Assembly (NCBI GenBank): GCA_964187785.1
Contig: OZ076409.1
Location: 806,001-870,000, forward strand
Source of the DNA: Amphiscolops sp. MND2022
Lineage: Eukaryota
Direction of reading: 5' to 3'
DNA length: 64,000 nucleotides
The position numbers and the translations under genes were made by a program. Shown here one piece after another: positions 243 through 62,603 of the stretch. The notes beneath the pieces are model-generated. The model saw nothing but the letters and a program-made list of their open reading frames with translations. It ran no database searches and had not been told where the DNA came from. The stretch's first letter is position 1. Every line of letters begins with the position of its first letter.

Positions 243-1452
243 TGTCATACCGGTTGGTATGAATTATAACGACTGAAGAATGAAGTCTCCACCAACCGAC
301 TGAAACATTTAAAACACAAACATTTTAAACACATGTAGACGCATACAATGGACGATTGTACTATGCAGTCGTCAACCCAATTTCACCAATGTCACAAATT
401 ACCAGTGTGCTTCGACACTTTTTACAAGAACATATTTTCCTTTCACCTGTTTAGCAATAACGACTAAAACAGATAGTCGAATTCAGCAACCTTTATGTGC
501 AATATATGAAACTTTTACACAAACGACTGGCATATCCGGTTGTACCTTTACTTAAACATACATGCAGTTTTTTATATCTAAATCATCAATAGTCCAATTA
601 CTAGAGCATCGCTTAGTTCACCAATAGTCATTTAGCATCGTTTAGTTCATAAATACTCATTCAGTCAAAACTTTGCGAAATTACCAGCAACGACTTCGAT
701 CAATAGTCGTCCATTTGTACTTAGTGCTAATTAGAGCAATATTACGACGATCAAAGTGCAGTAATTACATTCATCAATTCAATCATTAGTACGCGCTGTG
801 ATGTTACAAGGTAAATGATGCATACTGGTGTGATAATAGAGTGAAAGTACCGAAGTGGTAAATAACAACGACTGAAGTGACCAGTCGTACCAAATGTACC
901 ATGAGGTGCTAACAGCAGGTTAACCAAAATAACCAATTGAAAAGAGACTCAAATAATCAAGTGCAATTAACGAGTAATTACGAGATTGAAGGTGCTACTA
1001 CAATTTGAAAATCCAGTCACAAGAACTTTACTACTGTGAAATCCAGTCGTACCTTAACAAGCACTTTACAAAAATCTGATTCTTAAATTTACCATTCATA
1101 ATTTAAACCGTTTCAAACTATAACTTTTCAATCATGGTAAATACTCGATCGAGGTTTAACAGAGAAAATAGGATTGAGCAATCTGGAACTAGTAGGTATT
1201 CTGACGACGAAGACAACATGAGTGTTGCTGACCATTTCGGTGAAAATATCTTGGAAAATGAGACGGAAAATGACATGAGAGAGATAGAGAGGGACCACGA
1301 AAATCATAGATTTGAACAACGTTTCTTGGAAATGAATCGCCAAATTGGAGAACTTACCAGCATTGTGAGAGCCCTTACTGATAGATTATCGAATAGTAGG
1401 GAAGAGAACAACAGAGACGTACTTAACTCGGAGACTTCCGCCCGTTCTGACA
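243..1452 (+). mobile_element. 3' LTR (~1.2 kb) of a Ty3/gypsy element related to element A; element body extends left of the window
   Basis: Purine tract AAAGAGGCGGAG at 231-242 then TGTCAT...; ends CGTTCTGACA (A ends CGTTCCGACA); contains Gag N-terminal ORF from 1134 (MVNTRSR...FEQRFLEMNRQIGELTSIV) similar to the A LTR ORF. Confidence 0.8.
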
Positions 1453-11052: not shown

Positions 11053-12627
11053 TGTAATGAGTATCCCCCACATCCTCATCTCCAGTCAGATTACGGGGGA
11101 ACTCGTCTCTCGAACTGCTTCTAGCTTTGCAGTTGAGATTTCCTTCGGATCTATTTTCCGGTCTCTCAGTTGGAACATTCCATCCCTTTTGGGGCATTTG
11201 TCCGGAACATTTGTCCAAGTGAGGCTCGAATTTGTTGCAACACTTGTTCATTAATTGTTCCACTTATAGCCCTTTGAACTTCAGAACTCACGTTTATTAC
11301 TCAAGAAAATCAGATCATTCATTTCGTGAGTAATTCTTTGATTAAGTTCTCCTGACAGCCTGTTTATCTCGCTACTAGAGTCAAATTCTATTAAATTATG
11401 GGCTTTCCAGCAAACCTCCTGATCTCATTCTCACCAGAATTAGAGTGAGAATTGGTATTGTGGTCTACTAATGCATCGCAACTAGGACTTTCAAACCTTC
11501 TAGCCGAATTTCAAAACTCGCTATATTTTTTTACAAGTGGTTGCTACCAAGCATTATATCCATATCTTATAAGTCAGATAGCATCTCAGCGTCTCTGGAT
11601 TTCCTAGCTTCACTTTCTGCTTTCTCGTAGTAGGCATGTTTGAAAATGAACGATTTGAAATACTTGAATTTCGATCGAAAATCGTTTATCTATTGAGGGT
11701 TGAACGCTAATGTAGTTCGGATTGATTTTGTCAACCAAAGAGGGATAAGAGTTTATATACCCACTTCGGCATGACGCTCACATTTTTTGTATTACAAGGT
11801 CATCAAGATTAACATATTTTCAGTACTAGAATTCCGCAAACGGCCCATGTCCAAATTTATCATTCTACATCAAGGTGTCGGAGGAAGTTAAAAATTACAT
11901 CAAGCTGAACATTCCACATGAGCATGTGCCTACGCGCGTATCTCAAAGGTCATGTGAGTAGTGTTTTACTTTACAAACCTTGCGTAAAGAGATGATTATC
12001 ACAGTTCTCTAATCGGACTATCTGATTAATAGGATGCATGAGTCTCATAGCCTGAACTTGGTCTTTCATGGTAATAAGTATCAATCAACTTATAGAGCAA
12101 CAGCAAACTTGTAGGGGTAAAAATAAGCACTTCTATTTTTAACACAAGTGAAAGGAAAGGTATCATTAACACGCTGGTACTATTTAGTGTTTGATCGCAA
12201 TTTGGCCTCAACGGCATATTGCCTGACTTCAATATGATACCAGCGTAGTTTAGTCAAATGGCCTTTTCCGGCTATTATACCACAGTACAATAACAGCACA
12301 ATGAAAGATTAGCTCTGATTGGCTAATTGCCTAATTTCAAGCGAGGACGTAGAGAGAGTAGTTTAGCACACTTGAACTCGTTTCCTTCACGTCATTGAGT
12401 TTGCATACACAGCACCTTTCTATTCATAATTTGAGAAACTCAATCAACACTGTTAACAGACTAATCTAAGTATTTAACTCAACAGTATTACATATCAAAA
12501 CAAGTTGTATTAGCTCCGGAAATTAAATCAGTTCTTACTAACATAAAAAAAGTTCTAATAAGTAGAAAGCGTTTCTGGGGCAATTTACGGTCCCATTGCT
12601 GTTGTAGAATACTGTGTGCCATCGACA
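11053..12627 (-). mobile_element. Solo LTR (~1.6 kb) with a decayed Gag N-terminal frame
   Basis: TG...CA termini with TSD CTTCT (11048-11052, 12628-12632); minus strand from 11637 reads MPTTRKQK..RKSRDAEMLSD, later SSSEINRLSGELNQRITHEMND..VQRAISGTINEQVLQQIRASL, with stops and frameshifts. Confidence 0.7.
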
Positions 12628-14089
12628 CTTCTCAATTTTGAAACTTTTCAATGCTTACCAGGCAGGAATGTAGGAACGACATTTGAAGAACATTTTCAGA
12701 ATAAAGAAATGAATACTTTTTAAACCTGACCGACGATGAATATTTTCAAAATATTGTCCCATATCGAATGAGGGAAATATACATTGTTGGAACGAAGAGC
12801 GTATTTGTACCTTTCTTGGATTGTATTTACAACACATTGGTTTTGTTCACAAACAAGAATGCCGAAGTGATCTCTACCTGTAGCGGACATCCAAATACGA
12901 ATTCTTTTCACAAACAATAGCTTACTGTGATATACTATTCTGAATCATAGATGATTTTTGCTGATTCTGATCGGTAACTTAAGACAACTATTTTAAACCT
13001 ATCTAAGACAACTACTGTCGAACTTCACTTTCATGTACGTTCATTATAAGGTAACATTCGTAATTATTAATCAATCTGAATCCCCGTCTTCCCAAGTTCT
13101 ATATATAACCGTCCTCCTATATAACGTAAACTTCGAATTAACGTATAGGTATACGGGTATGAATTTCCCGTATAGGTATAGAATAAAGAAGCTCGACTGT
13201 ATCGGAAAAAATGATCATACTGTATTCCAAAAAACCGAGAAAAGAAATCTTTTAATTTTTTATTGTCAATATACTTGAATACAACATTTTTCTCAAATCC
13301 GTTGTCCTCTGGGTATAATGAAAAATGAAACAAAATGCGGTAAAGTGAGATTTTTGCTCTATTTTGTTTTCGTTTTATCGGTATCGGTCCTCGGAAGTGA
13401 CAGCTTGTTTTTCGAATTGAATCTATTTTTACCCAGATTAAATGCGAATTAAATGACAGGCACTTACAACAGCAGAGATTATCAGAGTTGCTCTGAGAGG
13501 CTTTAGAGAGAGTTCGTTCTATACAGTTATAAATAGAGAGTTATAACCATTGATTTTTGACCCTGTGTTCACTCAACGTGGGGGGATACATATCGAGTGA
13601 AAGACAGACAGGAAATCGCAGCAACTCGGTTGTTTGCTTACCAATGAAGAAACCTTGAAATTTGAAATGTTGGTATGCACTCAAAACGAGAACCTCATCA
13701 AAACAGACAAAGCGTGTTGACATGTTTATCGCGGCTTAAAACCAAGGTTGTGACTGTTTCCCAAGAATTACGAAGGTAGTCAGTCAGTGCTTCACCAATT
13801 AACTCAAATGACAGGCGCTTCACGCAATGAAACACTTTCATCACATTAAACTGACAGGCGTTCGAAAAACAAAGTTCAAAGCAAACAATTTTATTCAACA
13901 TTTTGCCGAAAAATAGAAAACAGTTGAGATACATAAAAAGATGACCAAGGAACTTAGTTTTTTTAAGCTCTAATAGCTAGAAAAGGGCGCTGAAGACTTT
14001 TCTAAGAAGGTTTTTCCGTCAATGAAAATCAGTGTTTCTTTGTATTGGACCAAAATCCGGTACGAACACTATTTAATAATTTAACCTGC

Positions 14090-15172
14090 TGTCGGAACGA
14101 CCGTCAGTACTTGTAGTTGCTGGATTCAGTCTGTTCCCTTCTCCATTAACGGAGGCAAACTGATTGGTCAGTGTAAGGACTATATTGGTAAGGTCTCCGA
14201 TTTGTCTATTAATCTCATTAAATCGCTGGTCAATGCTATAACTGTTACTGTTTTGACGTCTAGTTAAAACGTCGTCAGAGTCAAGGTCTACCATTTGGTC
14301 TCTGGATAAAAGTTCAGGGAAACTGGCTTCACTTTCGTTATCGCTTGATCTATCCATATTTTCAGTTTCTACTTGTCTATTTTGACTACTCTGAGATCTG
14401 GTAATTACCATGAAAAGTCTGGAAGTTTTAAGTTGAATTGAAATGTTTTAATGTTAAAATAAGGATTGATAACTCGTAAGCAAGGTAGTAGGCAACTGGT
14501 TATATCACTGGTTACAACTCGTGAGTGAGTTCGGTTTTACCCGGTTGTGTAACTATAAATGTGTGTTAGCACCTTTCCTTTTAGCCAATGACATTCGATT
14601 TACTAATTGCTGTTTAATTGCACTTGACGACTGGCGGCTACAGTCGTGACGGGTGATAATCGGCGTTTAATTATTCATGTTTGATCCAGTATGACCGCAA
14701 GCACCAGTCATTTTAGCACGCAATTGTCTCAATTGCCTCTTAAACTGAGGCTTTACTACCGCGTGTTCTTATCATCATGGTGACTGATTCAATTATCGTT
14801 TGGAGGATAATTACTAAAAGGCATTGTACAAATTGCTAATATGAATGAACGAAATGTAGTTGTTATGAATGATTGAATATTCTGGTAAAACTTTACATGT
14901 AATATAAAAAATGGATGAAGAATGATTAAATCACAAACTATCACGATAGCTGATGACTGATTGTTTCAGTCTTGGTTTCTAAACGATGCACAATAATATG
15001 AATGAATTTAGTATTGATGACTGTTAGTTCCAGTCGTTATACTCTCAACTGTATTGTTAGGGGAATAAATTACTGCAATGTATTTTCATGATGATCTGTA
15101 TTTTAGGGAGTTTGATGTATAAATTAATGTTTTAGAGTTCGTTTAATTCCTTCATGCTTGGCGGGCATGACA
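14090..15172 (-). repeat. Element A 3' LTR
   Basis: Direct repeat of 24873-25954; preceded on the minus strand by PPT AAAAAGGGGGGGAA (15173-15186). Confidence 0.95.
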
Positions 15173-24186: not shown

Positions 24187-24486
24187 TTTGACGTCTAGTT
24201 AAAACGTCGTCAGAGTCAAGGTCTACCATTTGGTCTCTGGATAAAAGTTCAGGGAAACTGGCTTCACTTCCGTTATCGCTTGATCTATCCATATTTTCAG
24301 TTTCTACTTGTCTATTTTGACTACTTTGAGATCTGGTAATTACCATGAAAAGTCTGGAAGTTTTAAGTTGAATTGAAATGTTTTAATGTTAAAATAAGGA
24401 TTGATAACTCGTAAGCAAGGTAGTAGGCAACTGGTTATATCACTGGTTACAACTCGTGAGTGAGTTCGGTTTTACCCGGTTGTGTA
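24187..24486 (-). repeat. Third, internal partial copy (~300 bp) of the element A LTR replacing 3' gag, protease and RT
   Basis: Near-identical to ~25036-25334 and ~14253-14551; fused to gag on one side and to the pol connection region on the other. Confidence 0.9.
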
Positions 24487-25194
24487 TTCTTTTTTGAATG
24501 CCGTCAGTATATCTCTCAGTGTCGTTTCTGTCGTGATTGTTAGGGTTTGCCAAAACTCAAATGCGTCATCTCTGAGAAGACTCTGAAAGTAGTTGAGTTT
24601 TTGTTCTTCGGTTAGTTTGTGGGCATGTGGTCGTAAGTGGTTGAGCAATAAATGCTCGAATTCATTGTATTTGTCACGATTTCCCTTGAATAGAGGTACT
24701 TGGGTCTGCAGGATTTTTGGATGGGTCAAGGTTTCCCCCATTGTACTGCGGAGATGGTGGATTTCCGTCATCACATCTGCTATCTGCGGAATACTTTCGT
24801 CACTCCTTGGTGTCCCGTTGGGTGGTGTTGTTCGAGATCCTGATGGTCGTGGGTTCGAGACTCCTGTCACCATGTCGGAACGACCGTCAGTACTTGTAGT
24901 TGCTGGATTCAGTCTGTTCCCTTCTCCATTAACGGAGGCAAACTGATTGGTCAGTGTAAGGACTATATTGGTAAGGTCTCCGATTTGTCTATTTATCTCA
25001 TTAAATCGCTGGTCAATGCTATAACTGTTACTGTTTTGACGTCTAGTTAAAACGTCGTCAGAGTCAAGGTCTACCGTTTGGTCTCTGGATAAAAGTTCAG
25101 GGAAACTGGCTTCACTTTCGTTATCGCTTGATCTATCCATATTTTCAGTTTCTACTTGTCTATTTTGACTACTTTGAGATCTGGTAATTACCAT
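24486..25194 (-). pseudogene. gag: Element A gag, 3'-truncated
   Basis: MVITRSQ...VPLFKGNRDKYNEFEHLLLNHL...EEQKLNYFQSLLRDDA, similar to element B Gag; broken at ~24486 by an LTR fragment. Confidence 0.85.
24860..24872 (-). other. Element A primer-binding site TGGTGACAGGAGT (probably tRNA-Leu)
   Basis: Starts TGG directly after the LTR terminal CA; resembles the complement of tRNA-Leu 3' ends as recalled. Confidence 0.7.
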
Positions 25195-25954
25195 GAAAAG
25201 TCTGGAAGTTTTAAGTTGAATTGAAATGTTTTAATGTTAAAATAAGGATTGATAACTCGTAAGCAAGGTAGTAGGCAACTGGTTATATCACTGGTTACAA
25301 CTCGTGAGTGAGTTCGGTTTTACCCGGTTGTGTAACTATAAAGGTGTGTTAGCATCTTTCCTTTTAGCCAATGACATTCGATTTACTAATTGCTGTTTAA
25401 TTGCACTTGACGACTGGCGGCTACAGTCGTGACGGGTGATAATCCGCGTTTAATTATTCATGTTTGATCCAGTATGACCGCAAGCACCAGTCATTTTAGC
25501 ACGCAATTGTCTCAATTGCCTCTTAAACTGAGGCTTTACTACCGCGTGTTCTTATCATCATGGTGACTGATTCAATTATCGTTTGGAGGATAATTACTAA
25601 AAGGCATTGTACAAATTGCTAATATGAATGAACGAAATGTAGTTGTTATGAATGATTGAATATTCTGGTAATACGTTACATGTAATATAAAAAATGGATG
25701 AAGAATGATTAAATCACAAACTATCACGATAGCTGATGACTGATTGTTTCAGTCTTGGTTTCTAAACGATGCACAATAATATGAATGAATTTAGTATTGA
25801 TGACTGTTAGTTCCAGTCGTATACTCTCAACTGTATTGTTCGGGGAATAAATTACTGCAATGTATTTTCATGATGATCTGTATTTTAGGGAGTTTGATGT
25901 ATAAATTAATGTTTTAGAGTTCGTTTAATTCCTTCATGCTTGGCGGGCATGACA
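24873..25954 (-). repeat. Element A 5' LTR (contains the gag ATG at 25194)
   Basis: Direct repeat of 14090-15172; directly followed by the PBS. Confidence 0.95.
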
Positions 25955-37982: not shown

Positions 37983-40273
37983 TGTCACAGTCCGCTCCCG
38001 GACTGGATTGCGGATGCAGGAGAGTTGGCTTTGGGCGTGGACATGGGTGCACCGCAAGACTCACGAAAAGGTATTTTGGCTATTAACTCGAACTCTAACT
38101 AAATTTAAATAAACTGTGACTTGAAATGCAATAATACTTTTGCCTAGCAAAAATTCCAAATAAAACTAGTGAACGCGTTCTAGATTTTTCATGCTCTCGC
38201 AAAATTGAATAAAATAGTACCGGAAATGTAAAATACACGTGTACCGCGCGCAAATTTGAGCGGAAATGAAATAAGGAAGCAAAATAATCCAAAAATGATT
38301 TCACGCATGTTTGGCTGGACGAGCCAACCACGACAAATGAAACATTCACAACCTGAAAATTAGAATAAAACTATCCCAGGAATAAAGAGACCATAAGCTA
38401 ATCTAAATGAAAATACATTTCATTCGGACCTAAAACAGGAAATTACAGTGAGACAACACACCGTGGTAATTAAGCCTTTTCTTAGAAAGACAGCTTAATT
38501 ACTCTTTTGAACAGCAATTAAAGTGATTTAGGACGTCGTCAATACTGCGCTGAGTAAACAAAGCGGCGAAAGAAACAAGAATACATGTATATTTGTCGTC
38601 AATAGGACGCAGACAAGTTTGAAGGCATACCAATTGACGTCACAGCCTCGCATAAGCGTACCAGGAAATCATTCCAATTATCCGCCTATACTAATAGCAT
38701 AGGTAGAAATCATTCCAATTTACCGCCACTGTGACGTCACTGCTCCGGTAGCTAGCGAGAGACTCATTTCTAAAATACTCGTCAACATGACGTTGACAAG
38801 TTCATGAAATTCAACTCTGCCAAGAAAACTCGTCAACATGACGTTGACAAGTTTATGAAATTGAATAAAGTGAATGAATTTGCTGAATTTAGTCAAGTTT
38901 TCATCGCGTAAAAGCCGTTATTTCTTAAGGAAAGAAAATTGCAGGCTGTTGCAAATTGTATAACGAACGTATTGTTGATTTTTCCATGGTTTAAGGTCTC
39001 AATTTAGAATGCGTTTTGACACGAGCAGGATAATTTTAACCTCATGTTAAGTAACTATCGTGCGCTCTTAACAATAAGGGAATTCCCGTGCATAAACCAT
39101 CTTATTACAAGATTCCACAGTAGATTAATTAGGAAGTCACAGTTTATTCTCTCCAACTAGAAGCTTATTATGTACCAGAAATGTATTTTTCATATATTTT
39201 GCATTTTTGTATTCTACAACATTGAGCGCTGTATTTGTGGCTGTGATCATGTTTTCTATATTAATCCATCCGTTGCTGTCCAGTTATTTACGTTGTGTTG
39301 GTGTTGTCATTTAACGAACGTTGCTGTTAATTTTATAAACCTTGTCGCATTTGACGCGACATGACAAAGTTGCTAACAAAGTATTATTTTCATATCGTGA
39401 TTTCATTCTCATCTCTATCAAAGGATTGAGTCCAAATTCATAAAATATCGTCCTAGCATCGTTTAAATATTCCTATTTTGGAATTAGTCATAGCATTTTT
39501 ATCAAAGCGAAGTTCAAAATCAGGTATTTGTTGTTCACGTCAGCGTCATCTCAGCGTCAATTTCCCGCGAACCAAAGCAGTAAAACAGGGAATCATTTCC
39601 GGTTTGACAGACTGAAGTAATATCTACTTCCTGCTTGGGAGGAAGCAAAAGGACGCCGAGATGAAACGATATGATCAAATTTGATGACTAATACTAAATG
39701 AAGATCATCGTGTCTCAAAAATTGACGAAATGTCGACGTAAAATTGGGAACAAAATGATTTTTTCATCGAGAATACAGGAAATGACTAATTGTTCGAGGA
39801 AAATTAGGGCTTTGTTCGTGATCAAATGATGCTGGGAGGGTATAAATATGTTAGGAGTTGATGACAAAGGGACTCAGTCTTTTGCAATTGTACAATTCAG
39901 TTGAATTTTCAATTTCACTCTTGCCTTGTTCTACTTTGTCAGAAAAATCTTTGAAAGAAATTCAATTCTTCAAGATCAAACTTTTCTACAAAATGTCGAC
40001 AACAAGAAGCCAAAAAAGGAAGGAACGATCAGCAAAGCACCAGTGAGAACGTAAGTGAAGGCTTGATTTCACCCATAGTAGTAGGAAATCCTTGTTCTTT
40101 GAATCAGGACGATGAAGTAGCGGGGCCTTCTAGACCTAAATCCCCCCGGATTGAGAATAGTCTCTTTGAAAGCTTGAGAACTTCATTAAAGGAAGAAATA
40201 ACGTCAGAGATTAAGAATCTTCTTATTGAATCTCAGAAGGAGATGTTGAAACTCCTTAAACCTGAAACAAGAG
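37983..40273 (+). repeat. Element B 5' LTR (last 117 bp and PBS deleted)
   Basis: Matches 51740-54027, then jumps into gag after GAAACAAGAG. Confidence 0.93.
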
Positions 40274-41297
40274 CACACACAAAAACCAGCCCAAAAGAAC
40301 AAAAGCCAGGTCTCAGAGCCAGCCGCCGTCAAAAGAACGTCCAGTAGCGGCAAGGACTTTATTTGCAACAGATAAAAACGATAGCACTACTCTGCCCATG
40401 CCAAAAGCACTAACGGCGTCACTCCCGACCTTCGACGGGAAGTCGGAAAAATTTGAACTATTCGAAGACCTTTTCCGGAATAACATAAAATTGTACCCGC
40501 ACCTTACTGAAATCCAAAAAATAAACTACTTCCACTCCCTCCTCAGGGGAGATGCCTTACAAGCATTTTGTAATATCGAAGATACGAAAAAGGATTCCCT
40601 TGATGAGATCATGACGATTTTCAAGCGACGTTTTGGAGACTATTTGTCTATGGCCAAGGCAAGATGCGAATGGGACGCGCTCAAATTCGACCCCTCGAAC
40701 CAGAAACTCCACGAATTTCTGGACATACTTCAAAAAACTGCCAAGGAAGCTTTTGGCTCTGAAGCCCAACAATTTATTGATAAGGCGATCTATGCAAAGA
40801 TGCCAGACCACGTCAAGAAAATACTAAACAGGGCATACCTCGAGGATAAACCCTATAATGATATAGTACTCCACCTAGAACGCGAAATGAGACTTAACGG
40901 CTTAGGAGCGCCGGATGAGGTAACCTTAGTACCGCTAAACAAGGTAGAACCAGCCCCAGCAAAAACTGAGCCCAAACAAGTCGACAACACAACGCAAAAT
41001 GTCAAAAAAGGATATTGCTTCTACTGCAACAAATTTGGACACTATAATGCAGAATGCAGAAAAATGAAGAGAGATAAATGGATGCAAACCAGAAAAAACA
41101 ATAGTCAAACTAACTCTAGTGCAGGCAAACCGCTCAAATGCGAACCATGTGGCAAACCCCACAAAACGGAAGATTGTTGGAACGGAGCCAACTCTGCCAA
41201 TGATCCACGACCTAAGCGTCACAACAATCCAGAATCAAAAAAGGACGTTCCCGTCCAACAAACGAAGGCCAACGCTGTCACTGATTCAAAAAACTAA
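39993..41297 (+). pseudogene. gag: Element B gag (+1 insertion near 40019, deletion at 40273)
   Basis: LPTFDGKSEKFELFEDLF...QKINYFHSLLRGDA; zinc knuckles CFYCNKFGHYNAEC and CEPCGKPHKTEDC. Confidence 0.9.
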
Positions 41298-41341
41298 TTA
41301 CGCCGCGCCTGCGCTTCGGGGAAACAGTAGACGCGAGGGCG
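41288..41341 (+). promoter_or_regulatory. Putative -1 programmed ribosomal frameshift signal (gag to pol)
   Basis: Slippery A_AAA_AAC immediately before the gag TAA; the -1 frame is the pol frame and is open through to the protease; GC-rich CGCC-GCG...CGCG-GGCG stem starts 6 nt downstream. Confidence 0.8.
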
Positions 41342-44300
41342 TATTTAACGAACGATCCCCCTACGACTTACACAAAAGATACAACAATAGAATGCGATGG
41401 AACTCCAACAGAGGACTGGCTGAGACGTCAGGCACTCGCCTCCATACGAAGACCCCTCATACAAACCGAAAAAGAGCAAACACCAGATGAGGACCATGGA
41501 GACGACCATAAACAACACCCAAATCTCATTCAGCCATCCCCGACCAACACAACACAATCCACCGCAACCCAAATAGAACAAACTGAAAACGCCCATGAAG
41601 ACCAACCACCGTCACCACTAACAAAGGAAGATACTCACGGCTCCACCCAAGTACCTATCTTCCCAGAAGATTTCCCCGCATCTCTCAACTCTATTAAAGA
41701 GTATGTTACTGAAAAGGACGGAGAGACGTACTTACCTCTCCACTCGACTATAGTCCTCAAGAGCAGGAGGAGAATGCTGTACTTGCCACTAGAATTTGGC
41801 GGAATAACAATGGATGGACTTGTCGACTCAGGTGCGTTCATCAATGCCATGTCCTGGTCGGACTACAATGCAATCAAAATGAACAGTGACAACTGTGTCA
41901 TAAAAGAGTATCCACAACCTCCTTTCAAAATCGAATGCGCAAATGCTCAACTGGAGCAACCAATAGCAACAGCCGATATACAATTCAACATAGGAACGTA
42001 TACCTTCACGGACACCTTCGTGATACTCTCAAAAACGTCCTTCCCAATAATAGGACTGAACTTCATGAGGAATCACCAAGCAGTGATAGATACAGCCAAT
42101 GGGACCATCACCTTCCCCCATGTCGAAATGACATTAGCCATGACAGATGAAAAGAAAAACTGTAACCCCAAACCACTCCAAATCATGACTGAAGGGAACC
42201 AGACACTGCCTCCACAACAAACAACAACCGTAAACGCAATAGTCATAACTACAAATGCAATTGACATCACAGGAGCAGTACAACCGCTACCACAGTTTGA
42301 CGAAACAGCAACCATCATCGTCGCACCAGCACTAGCCACAGCTCACAACAAACGAATCAATTTACGAATAGCCAACTTGACAGATTTCCCTCACACCATA
42401 AAAAATCACACCAAATTGGCAGAATTGCAAATCCTGCGGCCAGAAGACACCAAACAGATACGACCCATAGACGTCGCAACGCTAACCACTCTACAAGATC
42501 CAGATGACACACATATGTATGTGAATGAACTCATGAAATCCAGCGAAAATGAACAAAACGGTGAAAATTTCTGGTTCCCCACACCCGAGAACCCAGGAAA
42601 CGAAGAAGAACATACACCAATTCAACGAAGGATACTGAAAGAAATCCGTGAACTCATTCAAAAAGAAAAACTAGACCCAACCAAAGATCCAGAATCACGA
42701 AAACATTTCCTGGACATGTTCCAGTGGGAAGGTTCTCAAATCGAAGGCAATGACAGGAAGCAACTCGAGCAAACAATAGTCGAATACAACGATATCTTTG
42801 CCCGACATCGCCTTGACATCGGAATCAATAATAGCTTCAAAGTCAAATTAACTCCGAAAGACGAGCGTCCAATTTACACACAAAGCTTGCCAGTACCAAT
42901 TAACCTGAAAGAGGATCTAACAGTCGAATTAGCACTAATGCATAGGTACGGCATAATAACGACCCTACCATTCTCGAAATATGCAAGTCCAATTTTCGCA
43001 CAAAGGAAGCCAAATGGCAAACTGCGTCTACTCGTCGACCTACGAAAAATAAACGCACTAATTTCAGACGATTACATCAACAACAACCACCCAGTCAGCA
43101 CCCTGTCGGACGCAGCCCAACACTTAGCTGGGAAAAAGTTGTTCTGCAAATTAGATTGCTCCCAAGCATACCACTGTCTACAAATGGCAGACCAACGATC
43201 CATCGAGATGCTAGCATTCAACTTTGCAAGCAGAACCTTCGCATACAAACGGCTGGCACAAGGACTAAGCAGAGCATTATCGGCATTTTCAAGTTTCATG
43301 AGGGAATATTTGGATAAAGTAATCAAAGCTGACTAATGTGCGCAATATGAGGACGACATCGGCATAGCCGCCAACTCCGTGACGCAGCTGATACGAAACA
43401 TCCGAGCCGTCTTCGAATGCATCAGACAAGCAGGACTCAAACTATCCATTGACAAATGCCATTTTGGGGTGACCGAAGTCGAATTCCTTGGAAGGACGAT
43501 CACCCCACAAGGGATCGCCCCCAAGACCACAAGATACAGAAATTTTTAGCCAATGTGAGATTTCCAAAATCAAAGAAGCAAGTACAGAGGTACATTGGTT
43601 TTGTCAACTATTATCGCAACTACATCCCGCGATTGTCCGAAAAACTGCTCGGATTTTACGAACTATTGAAAGCACACAAGCAAATCAAGGTCACAGAAGA
43701 ACTACTCGATCACTACAAAGCGATCAACGCAGCATTGGCGCAAGCCTGTGGATTGGCTCTCAAACAACCAATCACAGGACGACAATACATCCTAATGACG
43801 GACGCCAGTTTCCGAGCCTCGGGCTATGCGTTGATGATCGAAGAAGACAACGACAAAAAACTCAATTCAAAAAAGAAGACATTTGCGCCAGTCGCATTCG
43901 GATCGAAAGTATTCTCCCCAGCACAGCTAAAAATGTCAATTTATTGCAAGGAATTTTTAGCAATATACCACGCCTTCCTAGAATACAGCCATATCCTGTG
44001 GGAAACAACTCTACCGACCTTAGTGATGACAGACAACAGATCAGTAACGCGGTTTTTCCAAACAAAAGCCATACCGCCTACCTTGTGGAACGCGTGCGAT
44101 TATGTACTACAATTCAATTTCCACATAATGCACGTGGCTGGTACACAGAATACAGCAGCTGATTTCCTATCGAGAATTGATCTCAACCCCAAGGAGAGAG
44201 TCGAATTAAAAATCAGAGAGGACATCACAATTCGCCCAATCCAAGTAAATCTACAGTCTACTGACGTCGCAGATGAAGAACAACTTTTCTTTCTTCCAGA

Positions 44301-46208
44301 TGAAACGATTGAAACCGAAGAAGATACACTCCTGCAGAAAGAACAAGCAAGACAAAATGCGCGCGACGAAGAGACGACAAAACTTAAACTAGCTATCAAA
44401 GAAACTAACCCAATCCCAATAAACAAAGCTTCCTACACCTTCGGGGCAATAAAAGAAGACGCGCGCATCAGAGCCGAACAAGATTCAAACCTAGTTTTCA
44501 AAGCAATCAAAAAGAAATTGATTTGTGAAGAATATGACAAACATCTCTTACAAACTGATCCGACAGCAAAACGTCTCCTCATCCACGAAAACAGACTAAT
44601 AGTCAAAGATGGCATCCTAATGCGTAAATATTACGGTGAATGTGGCCAAGTTACGCACCACCAAATACTAATCCCTGAACACTTGGTTCAGAACTTCTGA
44701 AAACAATACATGGACAAATGGGAAAACACCCAGGAATTACAAAAATGATTCAAGAATGCCGATCAAAGTACTATTACCCCGGTCTAGCAAAAAGAATCAG
44801 ACAATGGGTAATGCAATGTGAAGACTGTATCAAATACAAACGGATTAACAATAGCCAAATCAGACCAAAAATGATCAACAATACGGAACACGTCCTCGGC
44901 CCGGAGGACATTCTTGAAATTGACATATTACCAAATTTGCCAAACTCTGCGGGATACCAGAACATCGTTACGATGATCGACGTATTTTCACGTTACCTAT
45001 TTGCATACCCAACGCAGAATGTCACAGCGAAAACAATCGGACGATGTATTGTCGACGTCATGACAAGACACGCATACTTGCCAACATTAATCTTATCAGA
45101 CAAAGGCTCACAATTTCGATCAGAAGTCGTTACAGAAATAGCCCAGATACTCGAGATCCAAATCAGCCACGCGTCCACGAAACATGCACAAACGATCGGA
45201 CTTTTGGAAAGAACACATGCGTCAATCAAAACTGCACTAAAAATTTCCACGGGCGAAAGACGTTCGATGTGGCACAAATACGTCCAAATAGCCGTAATGA
45301 ACTACCATACAACATACCATGAGACTCTGGGCTGCGAACCATCTACAGTATTCCACGGACGAATACCCTACAATGTCCTTGACCTAAAACTGGGAATCAA
45401 ACCAAAATGGAAAACAACACCCAACTCGGACATAGCGGAGCAAATCCAAAAACAAATAGACGAGGTACGAGCGACAGCAAAGGACAACATCATGCTATCC
45501 TACCTCAAATACAAAAAATACTATGATCGCAAGGCATCAGCCGCCCCACTAAAAATCAACGACTATTGCTATATACTCAATCCGAAAGCCGACAATCAAT
45601 CGACAAAGTTTGCGTTTCAAGATTGCATTTGGACAGGACCGTACATAGTGATCAAAGTGCTTTCCAATAATAACTACACAATACGAAAGATTGGCACGAG
45701 ATATAAACAAACACTGCATCGAATCAGAATACGACCTTATGTGCCAGATCAACGCATACCCGTCGTCACAGTACGGTCAAACGAATACCTACCGGATCCA
45801 GACGTTAAAGTATCACACAATGAATGGTATGCAGTCTCGTGGGAAATGGATTTCGGAAAACAAATCGACGAACTCGACACATCAAAAAATACGGAGACTG
45901 AACAAAGAACAGAAATACAAGAGGTGACAAGTACAGACGACAACACGATGCCACAAAAATTAACTGACAATACAGACGAAATGATACCGCCGTCACCGGA
46001 CTTTTCGAATCTCACTACAGACGTAGGGGATAACCCATATATACGTCGCCCCCCACCCATTCAAAGTCCACCTATTCCCCCAAAATCTCCGCCTACAGTC
46101 GTTGGATATAATCCGAGAAAAACAGCGAAATATAATCTACGACCTAATCCTAAACCTAATGCTGACCCTGACTTTAGACGACTTGACGCAATGACTACGA
46201 CTCACTAA
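41294..46208 (+). pseudogene. pol: Element B pol (PR-RT-RH-IN), disrupted
   Basis: LVDSGA protease; LRLLVDLRKIN, LDCSQAYH, YEDD (probably mutated YVDD) RT; TDAS, KEFLA, TDN, ADFLSR RNase H; HHCC and DDE integrase; TAA at 43334, frameshifts near 43520 and 44690. Confidence 0.95.
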
Positions 46209-51115: not shown

Positions 51116-51843
51116 ATGAACAACTTGTTAGATATCTACGAACTAATCGACATCTCGTCATCAAGCGAGGAGGAGGGCGAAATAACAAGATCGTCCACCC
51201 CAATACCTAGTGACAGCAGGGCCTATCCGGGGTTGGTCATCGAAATTCTGAACTCATCAGCAGAGGCGAACGCAGACGAGGAAGAATGCCTCGACCTATC
51301 GGTAAATTCACTAGAAACAGAATGCAAGAAAATGAAGCTGAGTGAGTCGTTCTCTAGTTTTGAAACTGTAGAATCGGGACAATGCCCCCACACTGAGTCG
51401 ACCGAAGAAGTTATTGCTGACTCCCCGGAAAGCCCTGATGAAAGTCTTCGGACATATTCATAGTAGAAGCCCCAGCTGTACAAACCGAATCAGTAACAAG
51501 TAGCAAAGTAGCCGAATATCTGGAGAAGGTGCAGCAAGAAGACGCCTCTTCATACTTTGTCACGCCCCCTGGTCCACTGAGAAGAATAAATCTGCTGACA
51601 ACTAGTCCTCTAAACGATCTGGAGGAGCCGAAATTAGCGCTAGACGAAGCCAAGGAAAACTACACTCGCGAAAATCACCTGCGACAGGCGTTCGACTCCT
51701 ATCAACCCGGTAAAGCCGTTCGCCCCATGACAGTGGCCCTGTCACAGTCCGCTCCCGGACTGGATTGCGGATGCAGGAGAGTTGGCTTTGGGCGTGGACA
51801 AGGGTGCACCGCAAGACTCACGAAAAGGTATTTTGGCTATTAA
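51116..51843 (+). pseudogene. Element B extra sense ORF (~240 aa, acidic/Ser-rich) running into the 3' LTR; 1-nt frameshift near 51445
   Basis: ORF 51116-51463 and a frame open 51442-51843 overlap and join with one added base (SPDESSSDIFIVEAP). Confidence 0.5.
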
Positions 51844-54144
51844 CTCGAACTCTAACTAAATTTAAATAAACTGTGACTTGAAATGCAATAATACTTTTGC
51901 CTAGCAAAAATTCCAAATAAAACTAGTGAACGCGTTCTAGATTTTTCATGCTCTCGCAAAATTGAATAAAATAGTACCGGAAATGTAAAATACACGTTTA
52001 CCGCGCGCAAATTTGAGCGGAAATGAAATAAGGAAGCAAAATAATCCAAAAATGATTTCACGCATGTTTGGCTGGACGAGCCAACCACGACAAATGAAAC
52101 ATTCACAACCTGAAAATTAGAATAAAACTATCCCAGGAATAAAGAGACCATAAGCTAATCTAAATGAAAATACATTTCATTCGGACCTAAAACAGGAAAT
52201 TACAGTGAGACAACACACCGTGGTAATTAAGCCTTTTCGTAGAAAGACAGCTTAATTACTCTTTTGAACAGCAATTAAAGTGATTTAGGACGTCAATACT
52301 GCGCTGAAAAAAACAAAGCGGCGAAAGAAACAAGATTACATGTATATTTGTCGTCAATAGGACGCAGACAAGTTTGAAGGCATACCAATTGACGTCACAG
52401 CCTCGCATAAGCGTACCAGGAAATCATTCCAATTATCCGCCTATACTAATAGCATAGGTAGAAATCATTCCAATTTACCGCCACTGTGACGTCACTGCTC
52501 CGGTAGCTAGCGAGAGACTCATTTCTAAAATACTCGTCAACATGACGTTGACAAGTTCATGAAATTCAACTCTGCCAAGAAAACTCGTCAACATGACGTT
52601 GACAAGTTTATGAAATTGAATAAAGTGAATGAATTTGCTGAATTTAGTCAAGTTTTCATCGCGTAAAAGCCGTTATTTCTTAAGGAAAGAAAATTGCAGG
52701 CTGTTGCAAATTGTATAACGAACGTATTGTTGATTTTTCCATGGTTTAAGGTCTCAATTTAGAATGCGTTTTGACACGAGCAGGATAATTTTAACCTCAT
52801 GTTAAGTAACTATCGTGCGCTCTTAACAATAAGGGAATTCCCGTGCATAAACCATCTTATTACAAGATTCCACAGTAGATTAATTAGGAAGTCACAGTTT
52901 ATTCTCTCCAACTAGAAGCTTATTATGTACCAGAAATGTATTTTTCATATATTTTGCATTTTTGTATTCTACAACATTGAGCGCTGTATTTGTGGCTGTG
53001 ATCATGTTTTCTATATTAATCCATCCGTTGCTGTCCAGTTATTTACGTTGTGTTGGTGTTGTCATTTAACGAACGTTGCTGTTAATTTTATAAACCTTGT
53101 CGCATTTGACGCGACATGACAAAGTTGCTAACAAAGTATTATTTTCATATCGTGATTTCATTCTCATCTCTATCAAAGGATTGAGTCCAAATTCATAAAA
53201 TATCGTCCTAGCATCGTTTAAATATTCCTATTTTGGAATTAGTCATAGCATTTTTATCAAAGCGAAGTTCAAAATCAGGTATTTGTTGTTCACGTCAGCG
53301 TCATCTCAGCGTCAATTTCCCGCGAACCAAAGCAGTAAAACAGGGAATCATTTCCGGTTTGACAGACTGAAGTAATATCTACTTCCTGCTTGGGAGGAAG
53401 CAAAAGGACGCCGAGATGAAACGATATGATCAAATTTGATGACTAATACTAAATGAAGATCATCGTGTCTCAAAAATTGACGAAATGTCGACGTAAAATT
53501 GGGAACAAAATGATTTTTTCATCGAGAATACAGGAAATGACTAATTGTTCGAGGAAAATTAGGGCTTTGTTCGTGATCAAATGATGCTGGGAGGGTATAA
53601 ATATGTTAGGAGTTGATGACAAAGGGACTCAGTCTTTTGCAATTGTACAATTCAGTTGAATTTTCAATTTCACTCTTGCCTTGTTCTACTTTGTCAGAAA
53701 AATCTTTGAAAGAAATTCAATTCTTCAAGATCAAACTTTTCTACAAAATGTCGACAACAAGAAGCCAAAAAAGAAGGAACGATCAGCAAAGCACCAGTGA
53801 GAACGTAAGTGAAGGCTTGATTTCACCCATAGTAGTAGGAAATCCTTGTTCTTTGAATCAGGACGATGAAGTAGCGGGGCCTTCTAGACCTAAATCCCCC
53901 CGGATTGAGAATAGTCTCTTTGAAAGCTTGAGAACTTCATTAAAGGAAGAAATAACGTCAGAGATTAAGAATCTTCTTATTGAATCTCAGAAGGAGATGT
54001 TGAAACTCCTTAAACCTGAAACAAGAGGGGTTATTAGAGAAAATACCGAAGAAGAGGTAGAGGAGGAAACTAGAAGTTTCTATACTCCTACAAAATCAGT
54101 GAGAATAAGTTCTACTCAAAACGACCCGATAGCATGTCGTAACA
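51740..54144 (+). repeat. Element B 3' LTR (2405 bp), contains an intact Gag N-terminal ORF from 53748
   Basis: Direct repeat of the 5' LTR; MSTTRSQKRRND... open to the terminal AACA. Confidence 0.93.
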
Positions 54145-54394
54145 GACAGAGCTAAATACCTACGAATGAGGAACAATATATTATCAATTAGAACTTTCCT
54201 TGATGTGAAAGCTTTTGGAAAATGATGAAAAGTTTCATTGCTCCCAGTTTTCATCGAAACATTGTGAATCTTTTCCAAAATCAACACCAACCCAAGACAG
54301 AACGAACCAGCTCGTGTACAACAGCTCTGCTAACACAAGTTTCATGCCGGAGCCGGATTGTTTTCAAAACGAATAAGTACCTATAAGGAATTCT

Positions 54395-57616: not shown

Positions 57617-60600
57617 TGTAATCGCGTGGTCTAAGCTTTGTTGAAAAGAGTATTCAGTGGTAACTATCTTGTGTATTGTTTCAGACCATATGGTGATGTT
57701 GAATCTTTTGGTTGAACAAATTGTTCAACGGAGCAGGTATTTTGTCAACACAATGGTTGCTCTTTTATGATCGCTACCACATTCCCCCGCCGGCAATTGA
57801 CGGTTGGGAATTTCGTTCACACTACAAGTAACAAGAACATAATGTACAAGGTTAATGAAGTAAGTAGTTTAATAAAATGTCACAACTAAGAAGTTTCAAA
57901 GAGAGAGTTTATTTTGGTTTTGACACTGCGCATATGTACACAGACGGCCGTGTCGATCTGGCGCCTTCCTGGACCTTCGGGCCCGTTCCTCTACCGTTGG
58001 GGTATCGTTGGCAGTGTCTTGGTTGCAGTTTCTTTCGTTTTCTTCTAAGTCTGCGAAGACCTGGGCTGTTTGCTGTTTCTTCTCATTTTCGATCTCTTCC
58101 ATCACATAGTTTTTGGCTTTCTTGGGTTTTGGTTGTTTTCTCGTCTTCTTTTCGCCTCTGGCCACTTCTCTTTTGGATAAGACGATCTCATTGGTCCTTT
58201 CGGCTGGCACAAATTTGATGGTGTGGCTAGTTTCTCCAGTGATTTCCCCCTTCGTTTTTTGAAAAGTCCTGCCAGTTTTCTTTTTCTTTGGCGGTTTCGT
58301 ACGAATATGGTGCTGTCATCATCTCTTGGAAATTCTTTCAGTTTTTCCAAGTCCACAGTTCTGTCGAATTCTAAATCATTCAATTCTTTGTACAGTTTTA
58401 CAATTATCGATGTTACAGTGTTTGGTTTTCTACCTGTATGTCGCTCGTAGGAAGATTTTCCGTCTTTTCCCTTGTTGGTCCTTAGCGCACTTATTAGTTC
58501 GTAGAACAATTTGTTTTGTTTCTCAGTTAGTACTTCAGGGTTCGCTCTTAGCCTCTCATTTATTGTCCTCACCAGTCTTTCGACTTTTCCATTTCCCCGG
58601 TGATCATATAGGGGACAGACTACGTGTCGCATCCTAGTTCTTTTTGGAACTGTCTAAACTCATTTCCCATAAATACCGTAGCCTGATCCCTTCTTAATTT
58701 TTGCGGAATTCCATTGTCACTAATATATTTCCGTAGGAATTCTGTTACTTCTTTGATTGCAGTGTTTTTGACAAATTTTAAGGTCGGATATGCGGAAAAT
58801 TGATCTATGGCTACGAGTAAATATTTTTTATTTTCAGGTGCGCCAGCGAATGGTCCCATAAAATCGAGTGCTACTTCTTCATTTACTTGTTTTGCCTTTT
58901 GAACAGTTCCAAATTCGCTTTGTCTTTTAAGAACTTTAATATTCTTACCTGCGTTTTGGCAACTTTTGCAGGTCTTTGCGGACGCCACAATTTGTCTGTG
59001 GATCTGAGGCCACCAAACTTCGTCTACGGATCCTAACATTGCATCACGACCTGGGTGTCCACTGTGGATGCTATTTAGGACTACCTGCCGCATGTCACGG
59101 GGAATAACTAGCCTGTTCTCGAAGAAAACTAGTTCTCGATCCACTCTTAGATCTTTGAATACTGGCTTGAACAATTTGTTTTCCTTTCTTAGGAAATTTA
59201 CATCTCGGCGTAATACTGCCTCTCTGACATTTTGTAATCCAGAATCAGATTGGTAATATGCCATTAAGATAATGTCGTTTATTTCTTTGAATGTTTTTAC
59301 TTTTAGAAATTTAACTTCAGGTAAATGCTCGGTAGATGTAGAAGGGTTGTTTTCTTCAATTGATGATACTATTGATTGAATAGGTGAGGTTTTCAAATTT
59401 TGCGACTGAACAATTTGTTTATTCGGAACGCTCTTTGAAGTTTTACTTAAATTACGTAGAGCGTTCTTTTCGCGGCTTGCTTGAAGGCGACTCATTTTGG
59501 AGTGTTTGCTAATCCGATTAGTGCTAGCGACGTTCTCGCTTTCCGTTCTTTCGCTCGCACTTTGCTCAATTCCTATTGGTTGATTGAACAAGTTGTTCAA
59601 TCTGTGATTGGTGTATAGCTGCCTATAGTAGTCTTTATTTATTTCTTCTACTGAATTCACTACAAACCAACTCTCCCATAGTTCCGTCGCATTTTTAGAC
59701 CATTCTTTTTCGTTATATTCGTTAGGGCGGCGGGACAAATAGTCCGCTAATCCCAGAGTTCTACCCGGTTGATGTATAACTTCCATGTCGAAGGGTAAAA
59801 GGCGGTCTATCCATCTAGTGAGTCTGCTGGAATACGTTTTATTTCCGTGGTGACTTTTTAAGGCTGTTTCAAAGGCTTTATGATCCGAAACTACTTCAAA
59901 TTTTGTACCGTATATGTAATTTCGGAAATGTTCTACGGTCCAGACGATGGCAAGGAGTTCTAATTCATTCGTAGAGTATTTCATTTCGTAGTTACTCAAG
60001 TATCTTGAAGCGCAAGATATGAGTTCCCACTCCTTTTCGCCCTTTTCCTGTAGCAGTAGTGCGCCCAATCCTTGGTGGCTGGCGTCGCAAATTATTCGCA
60101 ATTTGTTTTCTCTATTAAAATGTGACAATTTTATAATATTTTGGAGGCTTTTTTGTACTTGATCAAAAGCGATGTCATGTTTCTCTTTCCACTCCCAATT
60201 TCCGTCCGTTTTTAACAAATCTCTAATCGGTTCCGTCAGCTGGGCTAGTCCGGGTATAAATTTTATCAACTGATTCACTGCCCGAGGTACGATCTTAGAT
60301 CTTTCAAGTTTTTCGGTTTCATTTTTCCGGATATACCCTGTATTTTCTCATTATGTGGTTTCACTCCCTTTTCTGATATGTCAAATCCGAGCCATTCAAT
60401 CTCGTTCTTTGCAATTTTGCATTTATCTTCTTTTAGTTGTAATTTTCTACTATCTAATTTTTTAAAAGCTTCTCTAACCTTTTCTTCATGTTCTTCTTTT
60501 GTTCCCTTTGTTACTATTAAAATGTCATCTATAAAAACATAGACATTTGCATTATTAAAGAAAATTTCTTCCATTATTCTTTGAAATTCGGCGGGCATTA

Positions 60601-62603
60601 CTGTCAACACGTAAAATCCTGTTAAAATTGGTAAATACCGCTAGCCTTACCGCCTACAATTGCGAAATTACAATGTTTTGCTAAACTAGGGTTTAAAAGA
60701 ACTTGTCCAAACGCGTATTTCAAATCTACTGATGTGAACCAGACTTTTCAAGGTCCGTCGCCTGTGATTGTTTCGGCTAATGAGCAAATTAAATCGTCTA
60801 AGTTGGGCATTTGATATTTGTCTTTCTTTATGTTTTCATTCATGACTCTTGCGTCCAATGCGATTTTTATGCTTTTGTCTTTTTCAACTGTAATAACTGT
60901 GGGTTGTATAAAAACGTTGTTTCTTCATTTATCTCGTTGACTTTCTCAATATGTCTCATTTTGATCAATTTTTTGATTTCAATTTCAACCGAATTTTGTA
61001 GTTGGAGCGGTATCCTACGTCCATTTTGTTGTTTCGGTACGCAGTTTTCTTTAAATTGCGCGTTTATTTCGTGACCTTCTAATCGTCCTTTTTGTGAAAA
61101 TACTCCTTCAAATTCTTTAAACAATTTGTTCGTCGGTTCGCTTATGCAATTAATTTCACACTTACCACCTTCCGTCTTTAATTAGATTCCGAGGCCTCTT
61201 AGCCAATCTCTCCCTACCACTGTCCTCGTCCCATTTTCCGCAACTAATGCGCGCACTTTCTCCAGTTTCTTCGCCCCGGATTCGACTTGGCCAATAATTG
61301 CACCCAAGAATTCGATCTTGTTGCTGCTATAGTCGACATACTTCTCATTCTTATTGAGCGGTTTCATCGTAAAGTGCTTTCCAAAAATCTTTTCTGCGTG
61401 GGCCCTGGTGAAAATCGTGATTGGCGACCCGGTGTCGATAAGCGCATGGAACGGTTTTCTGTTGAATTTGCCTTTCAACACGAACGGCTTGTTCTTTGGG
61501 GTCTCTCCATCTATATGTAGAATTTCTACTTCCTCGGCAGATTCTTCTTCTGAACTGCTCCAAGGGCTTTTTGTGCGAATCGCATTTACCTTCCGGTTTG
61601 CTGTGTTATTCTTCTTTGTCTCTGAGGTCTTTAGTCTACACATTCTGGCGTAGTGGCCGGTTTTTCCGCAATTTCTGCATTCTACGCCTTTTGCTTTGCA
61701 GACTCTTCGTATGTCCCATTACAAAGGGTTTTTCGCCGCATTTATAGCATTCATTGTTCTTCTCCACCCCGAACACGGCTTCTGCTTTGATATTTGCAGT
61801 TTCCACACAAATTGTTTTTTTCTGCTGCGCACCCTGTTCAAAGGCAATGGCAAATATTAATGTCTCCTCGGGGTTATCCTTAGGCTCAGTAAATAGCCTC
61901 TCTTGGACCACCACCTTCTTCATGTTGGAGACAAAAATGTCGTAAACTAAGCTGATTGTTTGGGTTCCAAAGTCACAATTTGAAGCCAGCCCGTTTAGTG
62001 CATGCCAAAATTGCTCTAGGGTCTCTCCTTCTAATTGTTTGCGGTTGAAGAATTTGTGTCTATCCATAAGTCTGTTTCGCTTCTTGTGGAAGGCATCTTG
62101 GCATTCTTTTAGCAGTTCGTCTAAGTTCATGGTTTCTATATCCATGTTGGGTTTTCTGTCCAAAAGCGTTTTCCTTGCCGCCTCCTCGAGCGCAGTGTAA
62201 AGGAAACTAACTGCCTTTTTCTGAGCTATTTGTTCTTCTGACCCGCCCATCAGCTCTTTTCTTCTGGCATTTGTTGAGGCATCTCTGGTCAGTTCGTCCG
62301 GGGAGATTGAGGACTTTGCCATTAATGTGGCCTCGAAAAGCTCGATCCATCGGCTCCACTCATAAACTCTCTCTGCTGATGCATCTTGCCAAAATACGGG
62401 TATGCCCGAAACAGGCTGATTTTCGGCTCGCAGCGCCATGTAATCGCGTGGTCTAAGCTTTGTTAAAAAGAGTATTCAGTGGTAACTATCTTGTGTATTG
62501 TTTCAGACCATATGGTGATGTTGAATCTTTTGGTTGAACAAATTGTTCAACGGAGCAGGTATTTTGTCAACACAATGGTTGCTCTTTTATGATCGCTACC
62601 ACA
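57617..62603 (-). mobile_element. Ty3/gypsy LTR retrotransposon C (5.0 kb, Mag-like, no cargo)
   Basis: 165-bp LTRs 57617-57781 and 62439-62603 (one mismatch seen); TSD CTGAC; PBS TGGCGCTGCGAGC (tRNA-Ser-like); purine tract GCGGGGGAA. Confidence 0.95.
57896..62439 (-). pseudogene. Element C gag-pol, multiply frameshifted
   Basis: CYKCG knuckle; LIDTGS protease; VFIDDILI RT; ICDAS, NELELLA, ADYLSR RNase H; IHSGHPG...CKSC, LDFMGP, NGKVER integrase. Confidence 0.93.

Follow-up and report, generated by a model that had tools for sequence, protein, structure and literature searches.

Long terminal repeats (LTRs) of retrotransposons are usually treated as non-coding, and annotation tools seek gag only between the primer binding site (PBS) and the polypurine tract. 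Among retroviruses, coding sequence may overlap functions of the LTR or leader, or Gag may be extended at its N-terminus, and in both respects retroviruses resemble the elements described here. The nef gene of human immunodeficiency virus (HIV) and the sag gene of mouse mammary tumour virus (MMTV) overlap U3 at the 3′ end and do not encode Gag. Glyco-Gag of murine leukaemia virus (MLV) is an N-terminal extension of Gag from an upstream CUG, and its start lies downstream of the PBS. To our knowledge, none of these three reads through the end of U5 and the PBS. The yeast element Ty1, of the Ty1/copia type, resembles the present elements in that its GAG begins in the LTR and reads over the LTR end, with transcription starting within the LTR. 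However, the Ty1 LTR contributes no more than about a dozen codons to GAG, the primer is tRNA-iMet, and integrase precedes reverse transcriptase (RT) in pol. The PBS of Ty1 from Saccharomyces cerevisiae is placed within the GAG open reading frame (ORF) (PMC4974528). For Tca5, a Ty1/copia-type element of Candida albicans, a review describes the first in-frame ATG as lying unusually deep in the left LTR and calls the site of translation start unclear (PMC4139406). Here, we describe a gag start 106–195 codons inside the LTR in four LTR retrotransposon families, A to D, found in a 64,000-nucleotide stretch of Amphiscolops sp. MND2022 (contig OZ076409.1, positions 806,001 to 870,000 of the forward strand; hereafter, the window).

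Our best explanation, which we hold to be very probably correct, is that these are Ty3/gypsy-type elements of one clade whose LTR/PBS boundary lies 106–195 codons inside gag. The layout is directly visible, is conserved over many copies and relatives, and is served by an identified primer tRNA. The four families differ from Ty1 in their 106–195 LTR codons, in the use of tRNA-Leu(CAG), and in a pol order of protease, RT, RNase H and integrase. They differ from Tca5, a single low-copy element, in that there is evidence of selection, in many copies and several families, from another superfamily. An earlier note on this DNA, made from the sequence alone, had set the layout against a gag that normally begins downstream of the PBS. 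A start upstream of the PBS has precedents in Ty1 (PMC4974528) and Tca5 (PMC4139406). A search of full-text literature, with subscription journals and Repbase reports outside its scope, did not find this layout described in an animal Ty3/gypsy-type element. The layout is a new and extreme variant of a rare known design, in a Ty3/gypsy-type clade.

The presence of a gag head within the LTR is confirmed and statistically solid. Self-comparison of the window reveals the two family A LTRs as direct repeats of 99.1% identity, and the element bears the 5-bp target duplication GCAGG at both flanks. The head ATG (25194) falls at LTR position 761, which is 322 nt before the LTR end at 24873. From there, the frame runs MVITRSQ...GRSD/MVTGVSNPRP, where the slash marks the LTR end, and on into a gag region that matches the Pfam family DUF1759 (residues 169–237 of the window gag ORF). 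This agrees with the earlier note, which had described an ATG 322 nt inside the 5′ LTR and a frame passing through the terminal CA and the PBS into capsid sequence; the strand is minus. The same design, also claimed there for families B, C and D, is found in all three, although the read-through of B is seen through other genome copies and that of D through two 5′ copies elsewhere.

The PBS, TGGTGACAGGAGT, directly follows the LTR in A, B and C, and a decayed version of it does so in D. It is the exact complement of the last 13 nt of the genome's own tRNA-Leu(CAG), with CCA added. A pattern search found many genome loci that end in GGTTCGAATCCCACTCCTGTCA. At one of them (L080) ARAGORN called a tRNA-Leu(CAG) gene, and on a second fetched tRNA-like stretch (L081) it found none. 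The LTRs of A, B and C stop after the first base of a codon, and this last A of the LTR together with the TG of the PBS encodes the M of MVTG. Family D has the same junction phase once a base missing from its window copy is allowed for. Beyond the PBS of family A (24845–24872) there is a further 11-nt match to the T-arm of tRNA-Leu(CAG), with a spacing 4 nt shorter; some 28 nt of the element resemble a slightly deleted copy of the tRNA 3′ end, wholly translated in the ORF.

Copies from the rest of the genome preserve the read-through. The junction is crossed in frame in 25 of 30 family A copies; the Gag ORF is exactly 511 aa long in 12 of the 30 and 476–527 aa in three more. Outside the window, 28 of 29 family B copies read ...CRN/MVTGV..., and in 21 of the 29 the ORF measures exactly 479 aa. 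For family C, nine stretches were assigned to 5′ LTRs by LTR pairing where the partner was listed, and six of these cross the junction as MVNTRSR...SARSD/MVTGV..., with a 517-aa Gag in two; the 5′ LTR copy L061, for example, reads SARSD/MVTGV and continues into a Gag of this length. Even in family D, two of three 5′-LTR copies cross the LTR end and the decayed PBS, reading ...DTYY/MATGD... or ...THN/IVTGD.... In family B, about 30 nt over the LTR end and PBS are nearly invariant at all three codon positions, while nearby third positions are variable.

An open frame need not be a translated one. The LTR frame could be open by chance or composition and remain untranslated, with Gag starting at the ATG that spans the junction. 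The CA of the LTR and the TGG of the primer site always create such an ATG, yet the head frame is too clean for this account. It holds 0.2 stops per copy in A, 0.03 in B and 1.4 in C, and the other two frames hold 5.8–17.7. Because stops are so much rarer than in the other frames, the open head frame is more than chance. Of 25 other family A copies, 23 lack any stop in the head frame; the two remaining frames have 7.9 and 17.7.

Substitution patterns in family B argue in the same direction. Over 131 LTR codons in 21 intact copies (210 pairs, pairwise Nei–Gojobori), the ratio of nonsynonymous to synonymous differences per site (pN/pS) is 0.164 in the head frame, compared with 1.55 and 1.30 in the off frames. 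For Gag downstream of the PBS the ratio is 0.117. It is 0.80–0.87 in mock frames ahead of the ATG, taken from 396 nt cut by position and left unaligned, such that indels may inflate the distances. Across all 29 copies, with no filter for intactness, parsimony-informative sites in the head are distributed 13/16/65 over codon positions 1/2/3 (chi-square p=1.5e-12), and those in gag 25/21/118. The corresponding counts in the 44 open in-frame codons upstream of the ATG are 7/10/8. In 60-nt windows, the third-position excess is 2.7–16-fold from the ATG on and about 0.5–1.8 upstream, with one outlier of 3.0. The sole indel in the family B head is 3 nt long.

A second line of evidence comes from comparing families. 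The LTRs of A and C give a single tblastx match (E=1e-14), which runs from both ATGs onward in the frames of the ORFs, and the two heads share 32% identity by BLASTP (E=7e-13). Outside the head and one 37-nt block, the two LTRs are unalignable. It is therefore well supported that the LTR-encoded codons are under purifying selection and that this LTR segment is coding. Codon-level conservation, which the earlier note had set as its own test, is present in the form of both the family B selection and the A–C match. Such selection on head codons in turn implies that the head is translated.

Several observations weigh against this reading. Family A is too young to carry a strong selection signal of its own: its copies are 95–99% alike, diversity in the head is 0.021/0.017/0.034 by codon position, and the third-position excess is weak. 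Between A and C, synonymous sites are saturated (pS 0.83), and we set aside dN/dS values from the A–C and A–B comparisons because this saturation makes the ratios uninformative. The head also evolves fast, with a pN between A and C of 0.48, versus 0.27 in the rest of Gag. Neither the B head nor the D head is detectably similar to those of A and C or to the other, and all eight family D copies examined are broken somewhere. Of potential promoters, A has TATA-like motifs only (CTAAAAG, TTTATAG), and C has none of the TATA motifs scanned. Finally, the junction ATG sits in a context good for initiation, with G at both −3 and +4, and a head-less Gag isoform made from it is conceivable. Two further facts speak for a start at the junction, namely that Gag of a fifth element in the window, element E, does begin there, and that 3 of 115 database relatives are called from that ATG. 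Nevertheless, a junction start with an untranslated LTR frame would leave unexplained the low pN/pS and the 13/16/65 periodicity setting in at the head ATG, the scarcity of stops, a protein likeness between A and C LTRs that begins at the ATG and is confined to what follows it, and the ATG content of the leader described below. We regard it as highly improbable.

Translation of the head from its own ATG places demands on transcription, and three points we infer from sequence: where transcription starts, that the head ATG serves as the main start codon, and how the layout arose. Given that the head is translated, as selection implies, the RNA should start upstream of the head ATG and within the LTR. 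The 132–233 nt before the head ATG are free of ATG in all four families (rough Poisson product 1.3e-5), and possible TATA boxes are TATAAA (−152) in family B and TATATAAA (−122) in family D. Two out-of-frame ATGs stand between the head ATG and the junction ATG in A, B and C alike, which disfavours leaky scanning to the latter. Outside the heads, the sole nucleotide match between the A and C LTRs is the 37-nt block mentioned above (25374–25410 in A, 957–993 in C; 78%), which contains AAGTGCAATTAA and precedes the head ATGs by 180–216 nt (A) and 141–177 nt (C); possibly, the two families have a promoter element in common here. An internal LTR fragment in the window copy of A starts at LTR position 621 (25334), 140 nt upstream of the ATG, and has a 3-nt microhomology to gag. 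This edge may mark an RNA cap site that was reached in a template switch, since reverse transcriptase forced to switch on arriving at a capped RNA 5′ end would leave just this kind of edge; it is a hint drawn from a single event.

We thus envisage transcription beginning in the LTR roughly 100–140 nt upstream of the head ATG, which would be the first AUG of the RNA. Translation would then pass through the rest of the LTR (U5 and possibly part of R), the terminal ...ACA and the PBS, read as MVTG, and continue into the capsid and zinc knuckles. Since U5 is copied to both ends, the 3′ LTR also has a copy of the head, which would be a passive by-product of reverse transcription.

The arrangement is conserved in relatives as well. 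Among 115 relatives of the family A Gag in the database, 83 contain the motif M[VA]TG, at a median residue of 108, and most of the others begin downstream of it. An alignment of 22 full-length Gags combined three from this genome with 19 hand-picked among the longer matches. MVTG is invariant in all 22, amid surrounding residues that are variable; it is preceded by one of three head types (MVxTRSQ..., MNPDQGTELRSGR... or MSIESAKILRNGK...), and the alignment has two CX2CX4HX4C zinc-knuckle motifs. Fixation at the nucleotide level, for pairing with the tRNA, would explain this island of conservation better than protein constraint.

In the AlphaFold model, the predicted local distance difference test score (pLDDT) is below 50 at residues 1–55 and 90–136. 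Between them lies one long helix (residues 47–89, core pLDDT about 81–84), and the capsid domain follows at residues 160–325 (pLDDT about 87–91), then the two zinc knuckles. The head is thus modelled as a disordered acidic N-terminus and a single long helix. The LTR end and PBS fall in the low-confidence segment 90–136, which would be a disordered linker, where the needs of integrase end recognition and tRNA pairing would cost the protein little. Fold matches are weak, with the capsids of dArc1, PNMA2 and Arc the best (E=2e-3) and none at E≤0.001, and neighbours in a protein atlas are generic retrotransposon Gag and PNMA proteins and nothing else. The protein has what is expected of a retroelement capsid Gag: the Pfam families DUF1759 and Retrotrans_gag, modelled helices and CCHC knuckles.

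The families show hallmarks of LTR retrotransposons. All LTRs have TGT...ACA termini, and 5-bp target duplications flank A, B and D. Directly before the 3′ LTR, A has the polypurine tract AAAAAGGGGGGGAA and C has AAAGAGGCGGAG, whereas none is evident in the window copy of B. Along the pol ORFs of B, Pfam reports Asp_protease (weak) and RVT_1, then RT_RNaseH and RT_RNaseH_2, then Integrase_H2C2 and rve; the family A integrase likewise matches Integrase_H2C2 and rve. On the strength of this domain set and of a pol order of protease, RT, RNase H and integrase, we assign the families to the Ty3/gypsy (Metaviridae) type. As the placement rests on pol order and domains, it extends to the superfamily and not to a clade within it. 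In having a gag ATG upstream of the LTR end and a PBS within the ORF, the layout is like that of Ty1, but a Ty1/copia (Pseudoviridae) identity was rejected, for integrase comes after RNase H in B (44718–46208) and at the 3′ end of pol in A. A BEL/Pao identity was likewise rejected, since the Pao-type pol families Peptidase_A17, DUF1758 and DUF5641 were not reported at E≤0.01 in the pol ORFs of B, and the one domain found in common with BEL/Pao is the gag domain DUF1759.

The window copies of the four families are preserved to different degrees (Table 1). The family B LTRs are 99.5% identical over their common part. The 5′ LTR is damaged at 40017–40280: one extra nucleotide follows codon 8 of the head, and about 136 nt present in other copies, including the LTR end and the PBS, are missing. 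With these gone, read-through in B can be seen only in other genome copies. The damage post-dates insertion, since the 3′ LTR is complete and the target duplication intact; the end of this 3′ LTR at 54144 leaves 132.3 codons within the LTR. The family C element starts some 13.5 kb upstream, beyond the window, and the LTR at 243–1452 is its 3′ LTR. Family D is old, its copies being 72–88% alike, and the head ORF of its window copy has lost one A in an A-run after MPTTRKQ, shifting the frame after 8 codons. A regular-expression scan had pointed to a conserved early stop in this family; this was rejected, as alignment shows a difference in the length of the A-run.

Table 1. Coordinates of LTR retrotransposon features in the window, in order of position.
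Feature	Position	Strand	Description
Family C 3′ LTR	243..1452	plus	1210 nt; head ATG 1134; 106 codons in LTR
Family D solo LTR	11053..12627	minus	1575 nt; target duplication AGAAG; head ATG 11637, about 195 codons
Head ORF in family A 3′ LTR	14073..14411	minus	112 aa; 5 codons into flanking DNA
Family A 3′ LTR	14090..15172	minus	preceded by polypurine tract AAAAAGGGGGGGAA
Internal LTR fragment in element A	24187..24486	minus	300-nt copy of LTR positions 621–920
Family A gag ORF, window copy	24472..25194	minus	240 aa; ended early by rearrangement at 24486/24487
Family A PBS	24860..24872	minus	TGGTGACAGGAGT; 13 nt, adjoins 5′ LTR; translated (M)VTG(V)
LTR-encoded family A Gag head	24873..25194	minus	ATG 25194; 107 codons + first base of junction ATG
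Family A 5′ LTR	24873..25954	minus	1082 nt, TGTCATG...CCGACA; self-BLAST partner 14090–15172
Family B 5′ LTR	37983..40273	plus	without last ~118 nt and PBS; ATG 39993
Family B gag-pol	40398..46208	plus	capsid, zinc knuckles; protease, RT, RNase H, integrase; four ORFs
Family B 3′ LTR	51740..54144	plus	2405 nt, complete; target duplication GACAG
Family B head ORF	53748..54155	plus	MSTTRSQ...; 132 codons in LTR + 3 in flank
Element E	57617..62603	minus	4987 bp; 165-nt LTRs TGTGG...TTACA, 99.4% alike; target duplication GTCAG

The window copy of A has also been rearranged. A 300-nt internal fragment of the LTR links gag codon ~233 to the RNase H portion of pol; it takes the place of the gag C-terminus, the protease and the RT and has 2–3 nt of microhomology at both joints. 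It was considered as the marker of a family A subfamily, but this was rejected because its gag-side junction is confined to the window copy, the only full-length match among 40 places scored in the genome. This odd fragment, together with the damaged 5′ LTR end of B, might suggest that the repeats were mis-delimited, with the head residing in unique internal sequence and its overlap with the LTR arising from duplication or misassembly. That is scarcely credible. Both LTRs of A, which are 99% identical, contain the whole head, and so do the 3′ LTRs of B and C. Each head ends at ...ACA and is followed by the target duplication on the 3′ side or by the PBS on the 5′ side, and dozens of copies spread over different chromosomes have these boundaries too. 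Moreover, a solo LTR with a target duplication of its own carries the head.

Placing the head within the LTR, as we do, means that 3′ and solo LTRs carry it as well, and the earlier note had supposed that every such LTR holds an open head frame leading into flanking DNA. In the window this is true of the 3′ LTRs of A, B and C, in which 107, 132 and 106 LTR codons continue for 5, 3 and 16 codons beyond the terminus. It is not true of the solo LTR, which is frameshifted. The note inferred from this that such LTRs can make fusion peptides with flanking DNA or truncated, dominant-negative Gag. On this view the head would be made not only in Gag but also alone, with these LTRs acting as cassettes that yield free heads or fusions to flanking sequence and thereby hinder capsid assembly or feed new host proteins. 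We consider this unlikely. Of the four LTRs in the window that are 3′ or solo, three do have a head ORF that stays open to the terminus and beyond, and the long modelled head helix could pair with that of full-length Gag. Yet read-out into the flanks extends for just 3–16 codons, and the window's solo LTR is frameshifted.

Whether a 3′ or solo LTR could express its head depends on the position of the polyadenylation site relative to the ATG. An ATTAAA lies 41 nt upstream of the family A head ATG in 25 of 26 copies, and if this is the polyadenylation signal, RNA made from a 3′ or solo LTR would stop short of the ATG. Promoter-proximal polyadenylation signals are, however, often bypassed. In B, C and D, no conserved canonical hexamer was found between the putative start and the LTR end, which leaves room for head expression. 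A canonical hexamer occurs inside the head in 12 of 30 family B copies, none common to at least one third of the copies scanned was found in C or D, and the window copy of D has a single AATAAA at +339. It also counts against the cassette idea that p22, the known inhibitor of Ty1, is reported to be the C-terminal part of Gag and not the N-terminal part (PMC4551931).

If our reading of the layout is correct, at least a quarter of Gag would be missed or given the wrong start wherever LTRs are taken to be non-coding. A single stretch of nucleotides would serve integrase end recognition, tRNA priming and coding at once, an overlap that would be tolerated because the stretch lies in a disordered linker. 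As in Ty1, scanning by ribosomes and binding of the primer tRNA would be alternatives for one region of the RNA. The primer site, which 3′ tRNA fragments are known to target, would fall within a translated ORF. Should LTR copies be expressed on their own, they would form a large reservoir of AUG-initiated read-out transcripts. In the most far-reaching reading, which we consider unlikely, U5 would have become protein-coding across an entire animal clade of Ty3/gypsy type, and each of thousands of 3′ and solo LTRs would be a cassette of promoter, AUG and ORF, open to its terminus. With polyadenylation bypassed, the cassettes would supply a helix-bearing head of 100–200 residues fused to downstream sequence, or free heads that poison capsid assembly. 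Chimeric host proteins and a means of copy-number control would then be inherent in these elements.

Two origins of the layout are possible. A tRNA-Leu site could have arisen within gag and redefined the LTR end. Alternatively, an ORF that once started at the CA/TGG junction ATG could have been extended upstream. Element E, also of the Ty3/gypsy type, whose ORFs hold aspartyl protease, RNase H and integrase domains and which has the polypurine tract GGCGGGGGAA, bears on this question. Its 267-aa Gag starts exactly where the terminal A of the LTR and the TG of another PBS, TGGCGCTGCGAGCC, together make an ATG, and the PBS is read as MALRAE. Unlike A to D, element E has no LTR codons: an in-frame stop lies 13 codons upstream of the ATG, and the capsid motif follows within about 13 residues. 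Its PBS fits a primer other than the tRNA-Leu(CAG) of A to C. Element E is a minimal form of the translated-PBS layout, and its junction start suggests the route by upstream extension.

Some further features of these elements deserve mention. Directly before the 3′ LTR of the B window copy (~51680–51739), a purine-rich tract is not evident, whereas A, C and E each have one. Both A and B have, between integrase and the 3′ LTR, a region of 5–6 kb with long ORFs antisense to the element (A 15907–19806, plus strand, up to 301 aa; B 46395–50279, minus strand, up to 394 aa). Neither Pfam families nor any similarity between those of A and those of B was found for these ORFs, which may be parts of the elements or nested insertions. 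The 3′ region of B also has a tandem array of 115-nt units (50481–50896), seen as three overlapping 170-nt copies that are 95–99% alike. Finally, an inverted repeat of ~360 nt (54487–54842 and 62719–63082, 90%) brackets element E and its surroundings.

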